A stretch of 36,573 nt of DNA from IMG/VR virus record IMGVR_UViG_2728369393_000013. The stretch is one strand, 5' to 3'. Below the pieces are notes generated by a model, which had not been told where the DNA came from, made no database searches, and saw nothing but the letters and a program-made list of their open reading frames with translations. This document shows positions 1,205 through 36,573 of this stretch, one piece after another (the first letter of the stretch is position 1; the number at the start of each line of letters is the position of its first letter). The DNA is from a virus (lineage: Duplodnaviria; Heunggongvirae; Uroviricota; Caudoviricetes). The position numbers and the translations under genes are program-made.

Positions 1205-1759
1205 AAAATAATCTCGGTGTGAGATGCTTTACGTCTTCCAAGCCCCCTTCCTTGCCGTAAATGGAAAGATACATCTAATTATAGAATTTATATGTTTTAC
1301 CCTACGGCAGTGCTGGCCATTCAATATCCTGTGCAGTTGACGTATCAACACGGTTCAGCAATACCCGATACTTTTTCCATGCTTCCAGCAACGAGATTTC
1401 TTCCTCCGTTGCAATTTCCAGATCTGCAGCATCCTGAAGCGGCGCAATATGCTCACTGGCTACCTGCATCAGGTTGTTTTTTGTTTCTTCCGCCTCCCGG
1501 ATCCGGAACAGTTTTTCTGCTTCTGCATCTTTCACCCAGGCTGTGCCGTTCCACTTCTGAAACTCCCCTTCCGGCGATAACCAGGTAACATTTTCCGGTA
1601 ACGGACCGAGTTCAGAAATAAATAACGCGTCCCCTGACGCTACGTCATAAACCGTTTTACCCGATGGTCTTCAACGAGATGCCACGATGCCTCATTGAGG
1701 TAGCCTGAGTTTAACGGACACTCCTTCCTGAAATAGAATGGCATCAGAAGGAGCTAATA

Positions 1760-19390: not shown

Positions 19391-19590
19391 TTCACTTTCT
19401 TAAATCTAACGACAGACGGCTAACATTTAAGTATTGTGAAATATTATCAAATGCAATCATCATTGATTTACAAAAGATACATTTTGCCCCGAAAGGATTC
19501 CTGTCAGAAACATCAAAAGATGATGTTCTATACTGAGAACCATGGCAACACGGGCATCTAAAGTGAATATGGTTTGTAATATTTTCTACC

Positions 19591-19803
19591 TCAAAGTGCC
19601 ACAACATGAACAGCCGCGGGGCCTTTAGGTCCGTTCTCAATACCAAATTCGACTTCCTGATTCTCAGTTAACGTTTTGAAATCGTTGCTCTGAATAGCTG
19701 AGAAATGGACAAACACATCTTTGCTACCATCTTTCGGCGTGATGAAACCAAAACCTTTTTCAGGGTTAAACCATTTCACTAAACCAGTCATTTTGTTAGA
19801 CAT
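19591..19803 (-). CDS. cspI: Cold shock protein, CspA family (70 aa)
   Basis: [38 protein letters not shown]... canonical CSD with RNP motifs. Confidence 0.9.
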
Positions 19804-20166
19804 CATTATTACCTTTTGAAGAAGTTAGCCCTTGGGCAGAATGGTCCGAAAAAAAATATCAGAGAGAAAAACCAACAAGGAAATCTCAAGAGGTACAAAT
19901 AATAAAATTATAACAATGACTGCTTCAGATAATTTTGTAACAAACCAGAACACCATTAACGCATGATTAACCAACCATAGCAAGGATTACTTTTGTAAAG
20001 AAAAACACACGAATGAAACAATAGCTTTATTTATTAATAAAACGTGTCATTCTGTCTAATGACCTTTTATCTTACCCTTAAGATTTCAAGGATTTTGACT
20101 CATGGAAGAGTCCTTTTTATTTAAATTTCACATTCAGCGCTAAAAATAATCCGATTTAATATTAAT

Positions 20167-22760: not shown

Positions 22761-23039
22761 TATTGTGGTGCTTTTTGTGGGAGTCATCCACTTACGCACT
22801 TTGTTTTGCTATGCTAGCAGTTAGCTTCTGCTGTAAAACTATTCATGCAGCAAACCTGCACTTCACCACAATGGTTAGCATACTTTTCCTGATTAAGTTA
22901 TTGCCAAATATGCTGGCCATTGTTTCATGTATTGGATCTCCTTACTATTTATTAAAGAGATCCAATATTCACCACTCTGTCTGTATCTCCACTCAGGCAT
23001 CAGCCTTCTTCGTTATCGTATACAGACAAACTATTAATT

Positions 23040-23255
23040 TTAATCAGTAATTATGACATTTGCTGCTGCAGGACCTTTAGCACCACTCTCTACAGAGAAG
23101 GTAACCTTTTGACCTTCAAATAAGGTTCGAAAATTATCATTCTGAATCGCAGAAAAATGCACAAACACATCTTTACTACCATCAACAGGAGAAATAAAGC
23201 CAAAACCTTTATCAGCGTTAAACCATTTTACTAAACCAGTCATTTTATTTGACAT
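23040..23255 (-). CDS. cspB: Cold shock protein CspB-like (71 aa)
   Basis: [53 protein letters not shown]... Confidence 0.9.
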
Positions 23256-23555
23256 TCTACATTCCTTAACTTGAGCCTTTCGGCATAAATGGCTTGTATA
23301 ACAGAAACGACTTCGTACTTAATTGGAGAGACTCAAAGAAGGAATAAGTGAATAACACCTGAAATGAGAACTGCTTTAGTAAACTACTTCGTATATCGTC
23401 TGTTCTTCAAACCGACGCAATCATTAACGCATAGTTGAACATATGAAGCAATGTTTATTTTAGACATCCAGCCATCTTCAACCCCATCAAAAAACTATAG
23501 CTTTCTTCAGGAACGTGTGTATAGTGCGCCAAGTTATCAGTATTAAGGAATTTTT

Positions 23556-31090: not shown

Positions 31091-31919
31091 GACGATGCCC
31101 TCCGCTGATATTCAGGAAACGGTGAATATGAAGATTAGCCTTATCCGCCAGACGAATACGTTCAGCCTGCAAGTTAAGAAGGGTTTCTACCAGAACCTGA
31201 TGCGCCTGCGGATCCGAAAGAGTTACCTTGCGCAGAGCACGTAGTGCAGTTGTTACATAGCTGAGTTTATGTAAGTCTTCATCATTCAGACGAGTGAGGG
31301 CTGGGACAGTAGCCATGATGGCAGCCTCCGTATGCAATGGATAACTTCCACCACCGGAAACGCCAATTTCGCTGGTGGTGAACTGAGCAGGGTTGGCGTA
31401 ACCGGCGCATACGGAAACCGGCGCACCTTTCGGTGCCCCCACCCAGCCCACCATAATTTGGGTATAGCTGAGTTGTAGCAACAAAAAAGACGCTAACGCG
31501 CCAATTGTCGCCGTATGCAATTCCAGGACGCCAATCCCGGCACCCGCTTTATAAGGTGCCTGAACAGTGTAACGTCCCGGAATGGCAGAATCAATGTGCT
31601 GGTGGTCCTTCACACTCAACAAAATCACGCCTGAATTTCCACAAAGGGCTAAAGCACTCATGCGGGTAGTCTTTGCGAAGATAGATAACGCGCTGTGTTT
31701 CTGGCTCCCAACGAATAACATGAACATAAAGTCCTCTTCCGTCACGAAACCAGCGGTTAAGTTCCTGCACAACTCGCCCCCCACAGTCAGGTAAAGTTCT
31801 CTGTGGTTACTTACAGCCAGGAGATTTGGTAATCTGCATTCATGCCGTAACAACAGGTGTTCAGCGACGCTGACCACCAGCTGTTGCGACAAACGGTTAT
31901 TTGCCGTTAAACTGTTCAT
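31083..31919 (-). CDS. Hypothetical protein (278 aa) in replication module
   Basis: Long ORF in operon orientation; no motif recognised by eye (no Walker A). Confidence 0.45.
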   Translation of the reverse strand: MNSLTANNRLSQQLVVSVAEHLLLRHECRLPNLLAVSNHRELYLTVGGELCRNLTAGFVTEEDFMFMLFVGSQKHSALSIFAKTTRMSALALCGNSGVILLSVKDHQHIDSAIPGRYTVQAPYKAGAGIGVLELHTATIGALASFLLLQLSYTQIMVGWVGAPKGAPVSVCAGYANPAQFTTSEIGVSGGGSYPLHTEAAIMATVPALTRLNDEDLHKLSYVTTALRALRKVTLSDPQAHQVLVETLLNLQAERIRLADKANLHIHRFLNISGGHRHA

Positions 31920-32508: not shown

Positions 32509-32709
32509 TTAATCTTTCGGATAGATATCCGGTCTTAAGTCAGATTTCGTAATTGCACCTGACGTGCATTGCTCAAGTTTTTTAGCCAGCACAAAACTGG
32601 CTTTTTTATAACCATTGAAAACCAGCCGTAAGTAGCCTGGTGTTGAGCCAACTTTTCCGGCCAACTCGCCCTGCTGTTCTTTGGTTAAAGAGTCCCAATA
32701 CGCTTTCAT
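32509..32709 (-). CDS. Cro/YdaS-like HTH protein (66 aa)
   Basis: MKAYWDSLTKEQQGELAGKVGSTPGYLRLVFNGYKKASFVLAKKLEQ has HTH; GGAGG SD 8 nt upstream; divergent from cI. Confidence 0.6.
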   Translation of the reverse strand: MKAYWDSLTKEQQGELAGKVGSTPGYLRLVFNGYKKASFVLAKKLEQCTSGAITKSDLRPDIYPKD

Positions 32710-32799
32710 ACAATATGTACCTCCGGTATACATATTACATGATTGAGATGAATCTTCAAGATACTTGTACCTTATCGGTACAAAGGTTTTAATTTCTTT
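32710..32799. promoter_or_regulatory. Divergent cI/cro promoter-operator region with perfect palindrome TTGTACC-TTATC-GGTACAA (32765-32783)
   Basis: Palindrome seen directly; TTGAAG-16-TAATAT on minus strand toward cro; TTGTAC-18-TTTAAT on plus strand ending at cI ATG. Confidence 0.55.
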
Positions 32800-33474
32800 A
32801 TGAAAACAGTCCATGACATCCGGCGGTCTAACGCCAGAAAACTGAGAGATGGTGTTGGCGGGAATTCTTCCTTTGCCACCATGATTGATCGCGAGCCAAC
32901 CCAGACCAGCAGGTTTATGGGAGATGGTGCTACTAAAAATATCGGTGACAGCATGGCACGACACATCGAAAAATGTTTCGACCTGCCTGTCGGATGGCTC
33001 GATCAAGAACACCAGACAACGAACATCACAAAAAAACCTGATGTTTCAATCACTAATAAACAAATCACATTAGTCCCTGTCATATCATGGGTACAGGCCG
33101 GAGCATGGAAAGAAGTTGGATATTCTGAGGTTGATTTGAGCACAGCAGAAACGTATCCCTGCCCTGTACCCTGTGGGGAAATGACTTATATCTTGCGGGT
33201 GATAGGTGATTCAATGATTGATGAGTACCGCCCGGGAGACATGATTTTTGTCGATCCTGAAGTACCTGCCTGCCACGGTGACGACGTTATTGCATTGATG
33301 CACGATACAGGTGAAACCACCTTCAAAAGGTTGATAGAAGATGGGACACAGCGTTATCTCAAAGCGTTAAACCCAAACTGGCCTGAGCCTTACATTAAGA
33401 TCAACGGTAATTGCTCTATAATTGGTACTGTGATTTTCTCAGGAAAACCAAGAAGATACAAAATCAAAGCCTAA
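32800..33474 (+). CDS. CI-type repressor with C-terminal S24 (LexA-like) autopeptidase domain (224 aa)
   Basis: C-terminal GDSM (Ser nucleophile) and downstream Lys; architecture like P22 C2/lambda CI. Confidence 0.8.
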   Translation: MKTVHDIRRSNARKLRDGVGGNSSFATMIDREPTQTSRFMGDGATKNIGDSMARHIEKCFDLPVGWLDQEHQTTNITKKPDVSITNKQITLVPVISWVQAGAWKEVGYSEVDLSTAETYPCPVPCGEMTYILRVIGDSMIDEYRPGDMIFVDPEVPACHGDDVIALMHDTGETTFKRLIEDGTQRYLKALNPNWPEPYIKINGNCSIIGTVIFSGKPRRYKIKA

Positions 33475-33488
33475 TCAATGTTTATGAA

Positions 33489-33510
33489 CCTGCTTCGGCA
33501 GGTTTTTTTA
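33489..33510 (+). terminator. Rho-independent terminator after cI
   Basis: CCTGCTTCGGCAGG hairpin followed by T7. Confidence 0.75.
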
Positions 33511-33513
33511 TAC

Positions 33514-33542
33514 TTGACAGTGTACCTTTGAGATACATAATG
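33514..33542 (+). promoter_or_regulatory. Candidate sigma70 promoter (TTGACA-16-CATAAT) immediately after cI terminator
   Basis: Near-consensus -35 and -10 hexamers seen directly; overlaps TGTACC operator-like motifs. Confidence 0.45.
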
Positions 33543-33624
33543 TACCCAAGAGAAACAACAAACAGGCAGGACGCCCACGAAGTAGCCGCCTGGGGCATAT
33601 GAAGTCCAGGATGATTCGTTAGCA

Positions 33625-33650
33625 ACAAAAAAGCGCCCTATAGGACGCTT
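33625..33650 (-). terminator. Rho-independent terminator (minus strand) for DUF1311-like gene
   Basis: On minus strand AGCGTCC-TATA-GGGCGCT hairpin (one mismatch) followed by T6. Confidence 0.5.
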
Positions 33651-33676
33651 CGCTCTTTAACAATCTGGATGACTTA

Positions 33677-34189
33677 TTACTCAGATTTGAACTTTGGTTC
33701 TGGCAAAAGAGGAGGAGTTGAGTCCTCGAATCGTAGCCAGTGCTCCCAGATATCGTGGGATTGTAATTCCAGAAGACCAATTTGACGTGATGCAACTGCA
33801 GTGCCAGCTATAGTTCCTCCTGCATAATCAACCTGGACGGACTTTGACGCTTTCTCAATTAATTCTGTCCAAGCTTCACTTTCCGCGTTAAAAGAAGCAG
33901 TTAATTCCTGCAGACGCTGTGGATCATCCTTGTTGTCTTGTTTCAAACGATTCAGGGCGGCCACCGAATACTTATTCTTAACCCAACTAACCTGAGCTAA
34001 CTGAACTCTCTGACAAGCGTCCATATCAGTAGTTGTTTCCTGAGGCATATCAAAGCAGGAAATAAAAAAAGTCTCAACACCATCATTTAGACTACTGCTC
34101 GGCTGGTTCAAAGCATCAGAAGCATTGGATGCTATCGGTATTATCAGTGCTACCGACAGAATCAAACGTTTAACATAAATCGCTCCCAT
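33677..34189 (-). CDS. Secreted DUF1311 (LprI lysozyme-inhibitor-like) protein, 170 aa, moron between cI and pL
   Basis: N-terminal signal peptide (KRLILSVALIIPIASNA); C-terminal EAWTELIEKASKSVQVDYAGGTIAGTAVASRQIGLLELQSHDIWE matches DUF1311 pattern as recalled; SD GAGGGG before ATG. Confidence 0.5.
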   Translation of the reverse strand: MGAIYVKRLILSVALIIPIASNASDALNQPSSSLNDGVETFFISCFDMPQETTTDMDACQRVQLAQVSWVKNKYSVAALNRLKQDNKDDPQRLQELTASFNAESEAWTELIEKASKSVQVDYAGGTIAGTAVASRQIGLLELQSHDIWEHWLRFEDSTPPLLPEPKFKSE

Positions 34190-34477
34190 TTAATTATCCC
34201 CTCTAAGAACAGAGTCATCCAGATTAGCCGAATCCTTGTTGTTGGGGAATAACCAGGCCCACCTCGCCTGATGTGGCTAAAAGCAGGCACATAACAGCTA
34301 AGTATTTTCAACCAGAGAGAATCCTTAGCGTTGTGGTGAATGCGGCTCAGCGCACGCGGGTTAAGGTTGAGGCTGACAGTCGACCTTCTGTGGATACCCA
34401 CCCGCCTGGTGTGCAACCTTCGCCAGGCACCGGGAGGCACCCGGCACCACAACTTTATGCTGTGTGTAGTCCTGGCG

Positions 34478-34511
34478 GTACCAGTTTGTACCCTTGCTTC
34501 CGGCTGGTACC
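34478..34511. promoter_or_regulatory. Putative OL/pL operator region with three GTACC-core motifs
   Basis: GGTACC (34478-34483), TTGTACC (34486-34492), GGTACC (34506-34511) resemble half-sites of the OR palindrome. Confidence 0.4.
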
Positions 34512-34608
34512 GCTCTTTTTACAAAACAGAGAAGAGCATCACCGGACGACGGGCTCATAACCCAATCCATCCGGGCGGCTGCCACCGCAGGTGTTCTTCT
34601 CTGTTTTG
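34512..34608 (+). other. Structured leader element: boxA-like CGCTCTTTTTA followed by long imperfect stem-loop (arms 34522-34536 and 34594-34608)
   Basis: Inverted repeat CAAAACAGAGAAGAG / TTCTTCTCTGTTTTG (14 of 15 bp complementary) enclosing 57 nt with internal GC-rich pairing. Confidence 0.4.
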
Positions 34609-34657
34609 TGGAGAAACCAACCGACCTTGCAGGGTCGATATGATTAGGAGTAGCAAA

Positions 34658-35020
34658 ATGGCTAGCGAACGCAGTACCAACGTGCAGGAATTTATCGTAG
34701 AACTGGACGGCGGCGTATTTGAAACCAAACTCGGCGCAGTTCTCAGCGAAGTCGCTTCCGGTGTGATGAACACGAAAAACAAAGGTAAAGTCTCGGTCAA
34801 TCTGGACATCGAACCGTTTGATGAGAACCGTGTGAAAATCAAACACAAACTCTCATATGTTCGCCCGACTAACCGCGGGAAAATTTCCGAAGAAGACACC
34901 ACCGAAACGCCGATGTATGTCAATCGCGGTGGTCGCCTGACTATTCTGCAGGAAGACCAGGGACAGTTACTGACTCTTGCCGGTGAACCTGACGGAAAAC
35001 TCCGCGCAGCAGGTCGTTAA
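34658..35020 (+). CDS. Hypothetical early protein (120 aa), first gene of leftward operon
   Basis: AGGAG SD 7 nt upstream of ATG at 34658; longer listed ORF is an upstream extension across the leader. Confidence 0.55.
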   Translation: MASERSTNVQEFIVELDGGVFETKLGAVLSEVASGVMNTKNKGKVSVNLDIEPFDENRVKIKHKLSYVRPTNRGKISEEDTTETPMYVNRGGRLTILQEDQGQLLTLAGEPDGKLRAAGR

Positions 35021-35085
35021 TATCGTTTTTAATAAACTGATTATTTATCTCATCACTGAATATCTTTATATAGTGAGGACTTATT

Positions 35086-35910
35086 ATGTCTCAGAACTTA
35101 GACGCAACCGCAATTAATCAAATCCATGCTCTTATTTCTGCTCAGGGTGTTAATGAAATTATCAGTAAGATTGGTGCCGATGCCGTGGCATTGCCTGAGA
35201 ATTTCCGCATTCATGATCTGGAAAAATTTAATTTAAATCGCTTCCGTTTCCGTGGTGCGCTTTCCACTGCCAGCATTGATGACTTTACCCGTTATTCTAA
35301 AGATCTTGCAGATGAAGGCACCCGCTGCTTTATCGATGCCGATAATATGCGAGCCGTCAGTGTGCTTAACCTGGGTACTATTGATGAACCAGGTCACGCA
35401 GATAACACCGCCACTCTCAAACTGAAAAAGACAGCACCGTTCTCTGCCCTGTTGTCTGTTAACGGCGAGCGTAACTCCCAGAAGTCACTGGCAGAATGGA
35501 TTGAAGACTGGGCCGACTACCTTGTGGGCTTTGATGCTAATGGTGACGCCATTCAGGCAACAAAAGCGGCTGCGGCAGTCCGTAAAATCACGATTGAAGC
35601 AAACCAGACCGCTGATTTTGAAGATAGTGACTTCAGCGGCAAACGCTCCCTGATGGAATCTGTCGAAGCGAAGACCAAAGACATTATGCCAGTGGCATTT
35701 GAATTTAAATGCGTTCCGTTTGAAGGCCTGAAAGAACGTCCGTTTAAATTACGCCTCAGCATTATCACTGGCGATCGTCCTGTACTGGTTCTGCGCATTA
35801 TTCAGCTGGAAGCAGTGCAGGAAGAAATGGCTAACGAATTTCGTGATCTGCTTGTTGAGAAATTCAAAGACAGCAAAGTAGAAACCTTTATTGGTACTTT
35901 TACCGCCTGA
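35086..35910 (+). CDS. yfdQ: YfdQ-like (DUF2303) prophage protein, 274 aa
   Basis: Length and gene order match CPS-53 yfdQ-yfdR pair; assignment from memory. Confidence 0.5.
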
Positions 35911-36036
35911 TTTCCTTACTGCAAATGCCCCTGCGGGGCATTTATGGAAACATAATTGACTCAATAATCGCCTGATGGCGAGGGTTTTCTTTAACCAAAA
36001 TTCAGCGCGGTGCAGCGCATATACGTGGAGAACAAA

Positions 36037-36573
36037 ATGTCATTTATTAAAACTTTTTCCGGGAAGCATTTTTATTATGACAAGATAAATAAAGACGACA
36101 TCGTGATTAACGATATCGCGGTTTCCCTTTCAAATATCTGTCGCTTTGCAGGACATCTTTCACACTTCTACAGCGTCGCCCAGCATGCGGTGCTTTGCAG
36201 CCAGCTGGTACCGCAGGAATTTGCTTTTGAAGCGTTAATGCATGATGCAACAGAAGCGTATTGCCAGGACATCCCGGCTCCACTGAAACGCCTTCTTCCT
36301 GATTATAAACGGATGGAAGAAAAAATAGACGCCGTAATCCGTGAGAAATACGGGTTACCCCCGGTTATGAGCACACCTGTGAAATATGCCGATCTCATCA
36401 TGCTGGCAACCGAACGCCGCGATCTCGGACTTGATGATGGCTCTTTCTGGCCTGTACTGGAAGGCATCCCGGCAACAGAGATGTTCAAAGTTATTCCACT
36501 GGCTCCGAGCCATGCCTACGGGATGTTTATGGAGCGCTTTAACGAGTTATCGGAGTTACGCACATGCGCATGA
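36037..36573 (+). CDS. yfdR: HD-domain phosphohydrolase, YfdR-like (178 aa)
   Basis: HD-domain motifs H...H (LSHFYSVAQHAV) and HD (ALMHDATEAY); start at MSFIKTF; stop at window end. Confidence 0.6.
   Translation: MSFIKTFSGKHFYYDKINKDDIVINDIAVSLSNICRFAGHLSHFYSVAQHAVLCSQLVPQEFAFEALMHDATEAYCQDIPAPLKRLLPDYKRMEEKIDAVIREKYGLPPVMSTPVKYADLIMLATERRDLGLDDGSFWPVLEGIPATEMFKVIPLAPSHAYGMFMERFNELSELRTCA

Follow-up and report, generated by a model that had tools for sequence, protein, structure and literature searches.

The 36,573-nucleotide (nt) stretch of viral DNA analysed here (IMG/VR record IMGVR_UViG_2728369393_000013, hereafter the window) is, by its sequence, a lambdoid prophage of the SfV/SfIV/e14 type, and it carries a promoter directly behind the gene for its cI-type repressor. 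We consider it very probable that this promoter, at 33514-33541, is the early-left promoter of the prophage (pL) with its operators (OL), and that its transcript is the leader of an operon, bearing a conserved 5' RNA motif and a boxA, and no self-contained small RNA. An earlier note on this DNA had proposed a repressor-controlled small RNA; the repressor control finds support below, while the terminated small RNA does not. Taken by itself the promoter is known and ordinary, being the pL of a very common prophage family. What goes beyond existing annotation is an rrn-type boxA with neither boxB nor N, and a widespread, covarying 5' motif that has no match in Rfam.

The elements of this leader and their immediate neighbours are, by position in the window:

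32509-32709, - strand: cro-like gene (ymfT), divergent from cI; the offset-corrected coordinates agree with SfV cro and RefSeq ymfT
32716-32782, no strand: OR operator region; the SfV record labels the same stretch 'putative operator region'
32800-33474, + strand: cI-type repressor (ymfK/cohE homologue), a LexA-like S24 peptidase (Pfam Peptidase_S24, E 1.5e-26)
33486-33510, + strand: intrinsic terminator of cI, an 8-bp stem (33486-33505) plus T7 (-11.6 kcal/mol, z -4.9)
33514-33541, + strand: pL promoter, with -35 TTGACA at 33514-33519, a 16-nt spacer and -10 CATAAT at 33536-33541; start predicted at about 33548
33520-33558, no strand: OL operators, with the OLa core (33521-33537) between the -35 and -10 and overlapping the -10, and the OLb core (33541-33557) across the expected start
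33557-33620, + strand: 5' leader RNA motif (64 nt), defined by covariation, no Rfam match
33625-33650, - strand: intrinsic terminator of the moron, with its stem at 33631-33650 and a - strand U run from 33630 to 33625
33651-33670, + strand: boxA CGCTCTTTAACAA (33651-33663) plus the flank TCTGGAT, directly 3' of the hairpin; perfect consensus match
33677-34189, - strand: convergent moron, a 170-amino-acid secreted protein with an N-terminal signal sequence and a sub-threshold match to Pfam LprI (17.3 bits, cutoff 22)

Lambdoid phages have their pL on the cI strand, downstream of cI and under OR-type operators. The same identity is assigned here because the promoter stands downstream of cI on the cI strand, divergent from cro, with operators of the OR type. 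It begins 9 nt past the cI terminator and its hexamers match the consensus at 11 of 12 positions, the sole site of at least 11/12 in the 36.6-kb window, in agreement with the earlier note, which had read a near-consensus promoter (TTGACA-16-CATAAT) after this terminator. The two TGTACC operator-like motifs that it saw overlapping the promoter also hold up: they lie at 33521-26 and 33541-46, and each opens a 17-bp dyad (TGTACC-N5-GRWACA) like the perfect OR palindrome at 32766-32782 (TGTACC-N5-GGTACA), from which OLa differs by one mismatch and OLb by two. Within OR itself, the dyad at 32716-32732 has two mismatches, and a third candidate at 32746-32764 is weaker and was read by eye. Scanning the window for this dyad with up to three mismatches gave 22 sites against 10.1 +/- 2.8 in shuffled sequences, a number reached by none of 100 shuffles, and four of the seven sites with two mismatches or fewer fall at OR or OL.

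SfV, SfIV and PhiR29_1 match 33400-33700 at 96-98% identity, and part of this region is matched in 1820 of 5426 complete E. coli genomes, the e14 prophage of K-12 included. The gene at 32800-33474 has homologues labelled cI in the SfV, SfIV and PhiR29_1 records, and its terminator is also marked as such in those of SfV and Ayreon. The -35 and -10 of pL are kept in e14, SfV, Ayreon and PhiR29_1, with different spacers and cargo, and the Ayreon record marks exactly this site 'promoter'. In K-12 the promoter/operator stretch of e14 differs from that of the window by one base, and the same promoter lies 3' of ymfK (cohE) and 5' of ymfJ, ymfH, xisE and intE. There, the SOS response brings up ymfJ, intE and the pR-side gene ymfM jointly and late, for which the authors credit a CI-like repressor (PMC11002266). 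These data lend indirect support to repressor control of, and messenger RNA output from, this promoter. Together with the two operator dyads, the SOS-induced ymfJ behind a near-identical promoter (PMC11002266) supports by analogy the repressor control that had been suggested; cI would repress pL, with relief on induction.

The competing explanation for the transcript itself is a stand-alone, repressor-controlled small RNA of about 70-105 nt, present on induction only, in which pL transcripts end or are processed near the hairpin at 33631-33650. The first ~120 nt of the transcript do lack an open reading frame (ORF): none of at least 20 amino acids starts on the + strand within 33548-33668, so the earlier observation of about 100 nt with no convincing ORF stands. 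The 5' motif is also compact, conserved and structured, as are elements that can accumulate as stable RNA, it moves as a module behind many promoters, and there is a weak hairpin where the small RNA would end. That hairpin, previously placed at 33625-33650, exists as a stem at 33631-33650, but as a terminator of the - strand and not as the end of a + strand transcript. Its + strand version has a folding energy of -7.2 kcal/mol (z -0.23, no better than shuffles), lacks a U tract and runs into CGCUCUUUAAC; on the - strand it reaches -14 kcal/mol and is followed by U6. The asymmetry has its origin in one position that pairs as G.U on the - strand but is mismatched, as C.A, on the + strand. Since the - strand hairpin lies 26 nt past the moron stop codon, we assign it as the moron terminator. 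The GC-rich hairpin with U tail that a small RNA would carry as its own terminator is absent from the transcribed + strand at 33631-33650, and the hairpin-plus-flank module recurs in many phages with the same asymmetry and a free loop sequence.

What lies beyond the hairpin likewise speaks against a small RNA. The boxA stands directly 3' of it, and + strand ORFs follow the motif in SfV, e14, ZF40, SPN3UB, mEp237 and two further loci (L053, L087), directly so in SfV, e14, L053 and L087. In Kati/689R6-type phages a + strand ORF of 68 amino acids, with a strong ribosome-binding site (GAGGAG-N7-ATG), lies 3' of both hairpin and boxA and is intact in 30 loci; its position 3' of the hairpin means that its expression from pL needs passage through the hairpin. 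Small RNA families of Rfam gave no match. We therefore regard the small RNA as improbable, and the claim of a short transcript ending near the hairpin is not borne out; some stable RNA may yet be processed out of the 5' leader. That the transcript runs antisense to the moron is correct, as a consequence of the convergent orientation of that gene.

boxA RNA binds NusB/NusE (S10) and, with NusA, NusG and SuhB, shields elongation complexes from Rho; it is mainly Rho that boxA/Nus complexes are known to counter. The boxA of this leader is the sole exact match in the window. It agrees exactly with the rrn-type consensus GYTCTTTAANA / UGCUCUUUAACAA, is identical at 13 of 13 positions to the boxA of the E. 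coli rrnH leader and, taken with its flank (GCTCTTTAACAATCTGGAT), at 18 of 19 to the boxA region of the rrnH 16S-23S spacer. The sequence at 33651-33663 also fits the consensus GYTCTTTAANA given for gamma-proteobacteria by Baniulyte et al. (PMC5725501), of which shuffles contain 0.145 matches per window on average. Because boxA is an elongation signal, we read the transcript as an operon leader and not as a terminated small RNA.

A scan of viral contigs with the boxA 17-mer as query gave at least 120 loci, which fall into 47 sequence contexts, and in many unrelated phages a consensus TTGACA...TATAAT promoter precedes the 17-mer by 25-110 nt on its own strand. Enrichment was assessed on 58 distinct loci from an unbiased set of bacterial genomes, picked by the 5' motif. 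A boxA within 200 nt downstream of the motif and on the same strand was found in 14 of the 58 (nine with the hairpin, five without), against 0/58 both for the opposite strand and for the 200 nt upstream, with about 0.02 expected by chance. This oriented enrichment makes boxA a genuine component of these leaders. In six prophage loci of Xenorhabdus and Kluyvera (L266, L262, L263, L231, L255, L246), boxA stands at a varying distance from the motif without the terminator hairpin.

As to the flanks of boxA, no conserved hairpin with the 5-bp stem and GNRA-like pentaloop of a boxB is found on its 3' side, where the sequences of the relatives diverge directly after TCTGG. Of the rrn-type flanks, the hairpin abuts the 5' side, weak on the + strand, and there is no clear GU-rich boxC 3'. 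A boxA-like ACTCTTTAACCA (two mismatches, first G included) occurs on the - strand at 32682-32693, near the coding start of cro, and is conserved with cro in all relatives; this stretch inside the cro coding sequence is the only candidate for a second boxA after cro and was judged to be probably chance. In the Xenorhabdus locus L266, boxA is followed after 5 nt by CGCTGAAAAAGCG, by eye a lambda-type boxB, which gives a canonical nutL reading.

The 5' motif is built of two helices. P1 pairs 33557-33562 with 33615-33620 and P2 pairs 33589-33593 with 33606-33610; between their 5' strands runs the almost invariant junction CAGGCAGGACGCCCACGAAGTAGCCG (33563-33588), and P2 is capped by a 12-nt loop, GGCATATGAAGT (33594-33605, consensus GGCRUAYGAAKN). 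On the 3' side, ATGA (33611-33614) separates P2 from P1, in a GAUGA stretch 3' of the loop whose G closes P2. In an alignment of 130 distinct variants, the five core pairs of P1 are 93-99% paired, through pair sets as different as AACGAA/TTCGTT, AGCGAA/TTCGCT, ATCGAA/TTCGAT, AGCAAA/TTTGCT and CCACC/GGTGG, and P2 is 97-99% paired, with seven fully complementary stem variants and double changes at four of its five pairs. The observed helix pairing was reached by none of 500 shuffles, and slid registers drop to 15-55%. An inner helix proposed by RNAalifold (ACGAA/UUCG) was replaced by the outer P1, which uses the CGAA upstream of CAGG, because only P1 explains CCACC/GGTGG, GGAAC/GTTCC, GTCATC/GATGAC, TTCGG/CCGAA and the covariation at the fifth pair. 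The covariance model of the motif (R1) finds a single copy in the window, at 90.1 bits, with the next best hit at 11.4 bits.

Searches for a previous description of the motif came back empty: Rfam 15 (cmscan, E up to 10) gave no + strand match in 33548-33670, a full-text search of the papers available returned nothing for the core sequence, and none of the phage records in the BLAST match table marks an RNA, repeat or regulatory feature at the motif, a few having hypothetical-protein ORFs over it. Mimicry of ribosomal RNA by the motif was dropped, the words in common with rrnH being chance matches of up to 10 nt. Variant motifs whose P1 is CCACC/GGTGG or GTCATC/GATGGC (L221, L236, L253, L274, L290 from mEp237 and L291 from SPN3UB) have a second conserved leader segment downstream of them, roughly TTAACGCGCAGnAGGT...AAACGTTCCGCcaGCCnGGCGAnAAGGGCAAAC.

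Conservation over the initial ~75 nt of the leader far exceeds that of the promoter: this sequence stands behind at least 12 promoter/operator types, and in most contexts read the motif starts a few nt past the -10. Among bacteria sampled at one genome per species, the motif core was found at 66 loci in more than 25 genera, which include Escherichia, Shigella, Citrobacter, Kluyvera, Kosakonia, Phytobacter and Leclercia as well as Yersinia, Serratia, Pantoea, Erwinia, Pectobacterium, Photorhabdus and Xenorhabdus; a single Xenorhabdus genome holds as many as four copies. At 58 of the 66 loci the motif is preceded by a cI/LexA-like gene of the same orientation; no other neighbour is near-universal, and a conserved protein partner of the motif was accordingly rejected. 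Temperate phages with the motif include ST64B, SfII, SfIV, SfV, mEp237, mEp460, SPN3UB, SEN34, ZF40, YeP1-3 and phiNP, and in all three records read for this purpose (SPN3UB, ZF40, mEp237) it heads the early-left operon.

The range of the motif covers Enterobacterales, Aeromonas and lytic phages. The temperate Aeromonas phage pAEv1818 (L288, 1197-1256) has it with P1 GTCATC/GATGAC, and the lytic KP34-like E. coli phage Minorna (L289, 996-1045) with P1 TTCGG/CCGAA. In the lytic T5-like Providencia phage PR1 (L287, 585-660) the terminal repeat contains it, behind an early promoter (TTGCTT-17-TATACT) and with P1 GGAAC/GTTCC, and 11 nt downstream of it stands a boxA identical to that of the rrn spacer. 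The P1 helices of these three phages add new compensatory sequences. In e14 the motif is present and boxA absent.

The position of the motif, its invariant junction and its frequent pairing with boxA suggest a cis-acting element, with transcription elongation or the stability of the leader as its target; as a partner of boxA in an rrn-like complex it is a candidate. A more far-reaching reading, which we hold to be doubtful, would make it a new class of phage cis-acting RNA, set at the head of early transcripts of host RNA polymerase in temperate lambdoid, T5-like and KP34-like phages. It would reprogram the elongation complex without a phage protein, alone or with boxA, and so serve antitermination or counter Rho in a way that differs from both put and N/nut.

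In a related reading the motif, and not boxA, would be the key: a polymerase-bound, protein-independent antiterminator like HK022 putL, though unrelated to it, able to pass intrinsic terminators such as the one at 34474-34520 described below. Like putL (PMC9378689), the motif lies directly past the pL start in most contexts read, no N-like gene is seen between pL and the early-left genes, and the junction hardly varies from one bacterial family to another, which would fit contact with a conserved host machine. Moreover, e14 has no boxA, yet its intE, beyond an intact terminator-like hairpin, is SOS-induced with ymfJ (PMC11002266), although intE may have a promoter of its own. The likeness to HK022 putL extends to form, a two-helix RNA of about 65-70 nt directly past pL in a lambdoid phage without N, and ends there. 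Aligning the motif with putL and putR (NC_002166) gave only the words GGATGA and CGAAC in different structural contexts, for which homology was rejected, and the covariance model, run with filters off, has no match at either site. Whereas put sites also follow pR, each phage here has one copy and none after pR, and the motif can co-occur with an apparent boxA+boxB nut site, as in L266 (CGCTGAAAAAGCG by eye), which suggests a conventional N/nut system there; it also occurs in lytic T5-like and KP34-like phages. This antiterminator reading is, in our estimate, rather unlikely.

Alternatively, the motif may act after transcription, as a 5' stabiliser against 5'-end-dependent decay, a processing guide, or a ligand or protein switch, with boxA an accessory. 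Placement at the very 5' end and a closing helix, here P1, are common traits of 5' stabilisers, covarying helices around an invariant junction recall aptamers, and about 75% of the motif loci have no boxA. Against it, the highly variable downstream sequence offers no consistent expression platform, such as a terminator or a helix sequestering a ribosome-binding site, and boxA, being enriched on the 3' side, speaks for the elongation phase. We consider this a possible account, if not a favoured one.

For the leader as a whole we propose a working model in which pL heads a Nus-modified operon transcript. In the lysogen, cI would occupy OLa and OLb and keep pL silent. Upon DNA damage the repressor would be cleaved and host RNA polymerase would start near 33548; the nascent RNA would fold into the 5' motif, and the weak hairpin would be passed. 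boxA would then recruit NusB/NusE (S10) and, with NusA, NusG and SuhB, yield a Rho-resistant elongation complex able to continue, antisense to the moron, through about 1 kb that is not translated, towards an STnc100-like RNA and yfdP-yfdQ-yfdR. As a side effect, this traffic would collide with, and oppose, moron expression.

The path of such transcripts beyond the moron contains the following features:

34300-34522, + strand: STnc100-like RNA (Rfam RF02076, 46.5 bits against a gathering score of 47, E 1.7e-8), conserved in SfV and e14
34474-34520, + strand: intrinsic terminator of the STnc100-like RNA (-29.4 kcal/mol, z -4.1), in the path of pL transcripts
34516-34613, + strand: near-perfect 25-bp hairpin (-51.2 kcal/mol, z -7.5), overlapping the U tract of the preceding terminator and ending 45 nt before yfdP
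34658-36573, + strand: early-left genes yfdP (34658-35020), yfdQ (35086-35910) and yfdR (36010 to the window end), RefSeq names

About 1 kb of + strand RNA here, antisense to the moron, holds no credible ORF. The only + strand ORFs of at least 20 amino acids with an ATG start in 33548-34657 are one of 38 amino acids at 33669 and 107 in-frame codons upstream of the yfdP start, and neither qualifies as N; an N-like protein was also sought among the first + strand ORFs of SfV, e14, Kati and Ayreon, and dropped, these having no arginine-rich motif or Pfam match. Stretches richer in C than in G (C/G at least 2) occur near 33808, 33960 and 34150, and to judge from their composition these C-rich, G-poor untranslated stretches are possible Rho entry sites. 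The terminator at 34474-34520 and the hairpin at 34516-34613 are both kept in SfV and e14, and the latter could be an RNase III site or an alternative between terminator and antiterminator.

Several observations weigh against the reading of pL with a boxA-bearing operon leader. A strong + strand intrinsic terminator, at 34474-34520, stands between pL and yfdP, and as boxA/Nus complexes mainly counter Rho, it is the main gap in the model of pL read-through. boxA is present in only about a quarter of the loci with the 5' motif, and at this one locus, where it abuts a - strand terminator hairpin, it may have hitch-hiked with that terminator. A tie between boxA and a reverse-oriented first gene was sought and rejected, there being no correlation (22/72 vs 8/27), which leaves a need for boxA specifically to cross antisense cargo unsupported. 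P1 of the window has an A.C mismatch (33560/33617), and for this prophage the pL start site and the transcript 3' ends are predictions. Finally, the match of the hexamers alone is statistically not unusual, at least one site of 11/12 or better occurring in 43% of dinucleotide shuffles of the window (mean 0.53), so that the promoter call draws its weight from position and conservation. A chance or cryptic promoter-like sequence without function, to which these shuffles would lend some plausibility, is nonetheless exceedingly improbable, given its exact placement between the cI terminator and a conserved leader, the two operator dyads that overlap it, the retention of its -35 and -10 in e14, SfV, Ayreon and PhiR29_1 despite variable spacer and cargo, and the SOS induction of the gene downstream of it in e14.

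Among known systems, the arrangement resembles pL/OL-nutL of lambda, with which it has in common an early-left promoter that follows cI in the same orientation under OR-like operators, a boxA in the leader, and an operon leading to recombination or excision genes (xis/int in e14; RecE in SPN3UB and mEp237). It differs in having two operators where lambda has three and no rex between cI and pL, no boxB 3' of boxA and no N-like gene in the window, and, inside the leader, an additional conserved 5' RNA motif and a reverse moron. With antitermination of the E. coli rrn operons (leader boxB-boxA-boxC and spacer boxA; Nus factors, SuhB and S4) it shares the boxA sequence and no evident requirement for a phage protein, and its hairpin immediately 5' of boxA, weak on the + strand, resembles the rrn boxB in position. 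Unlike rrn, it has no clear boxC, its hairpin doubles as a terminator of the opposite strand with an unconstrained loop, and it sits in a repressor-controlled phage operon. Nus targets with boxA only, such as the suhB 5' untranslated region and CRISPR array leaders (PMC5725501, PMC7665894), are similar in that a lone consensus boxA sits early in a long transcript with little or no translation and would act there against Rho; the present one is phage-borne and stands behind a separate structured motif, and its function is a prediction.

The direct homologue of the region is the ymfK(cohE)-ymfJ intergenic region of K-12 e14, with about 94% identity over terminator, promoter, operators and 5' motif. 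It differs by having neither the hairpin+boxA module nor the reverse moron, with ymfJ directly behind the motif. With the motif in e14, 5' of ymfJ, K-12 offers a direct test of what it does. In lambdoid prophages without N, boxA would provide a testable route to early-left expression across untranslated, antisense and terminator-containing DNA.

Across the relatives, cI, its terminator and the promoter are conserved, and the cargo slot that follows them differs: it holds orf33 (+ strand) in SfV, ymfJ (+ strand) in e14, small ORFs in Ayreon and a reverse gene in PhiR29_1 and p10B, and is different again in Kati. The LprI family, to which the moron of the window has its sub-threshold match, is a lysozyme inhibitor family. 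Past the slot all relatives share the STnc100-like RNA and then yfdP, yfdQ and yfdR; the varied content of the slot suggests an insertion hot spot between pL and the STnc100-like block. That block is called ORF ymfH in K-12 e14 (L006, 3879-4190) and 'frameshifted hypothetical protein' in RefSeq prophages; published work on Pas/STnc100 deals with other loci. The block probably encodes no protein and is an RNA gene or leader module, so that its description as an ORF or frameshifted pseudogene is likely a mis-annotation corrected here.

Elsewhere in the window, two Rfam matches above the gathering score, a C4 antisense RNA (80.7 bits) and IsrK (61.2 bits), lie on the - strand at 31371-31458 and 31483-31559, within a long ORF (the SfV orf37 'immunity region') of the pR operon. 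They suggest a second immunity or anti-repressor control of the kind seen in phages P1/P7 or Gifsy. Pairing of the leader with these RNAs (31371-31559) was considered and dropped, the duplexes being long and imperfect and, at z about -0.7 and -2.6, not clearly stronger than those of shuffles. An IS009 RNA (221 bits) is found at 1336-1534 (- strand), and two cspA-type thermoregulator leaders with cold-shock genes lie at 19545-19961 and 22977-23416, both on the - strand.

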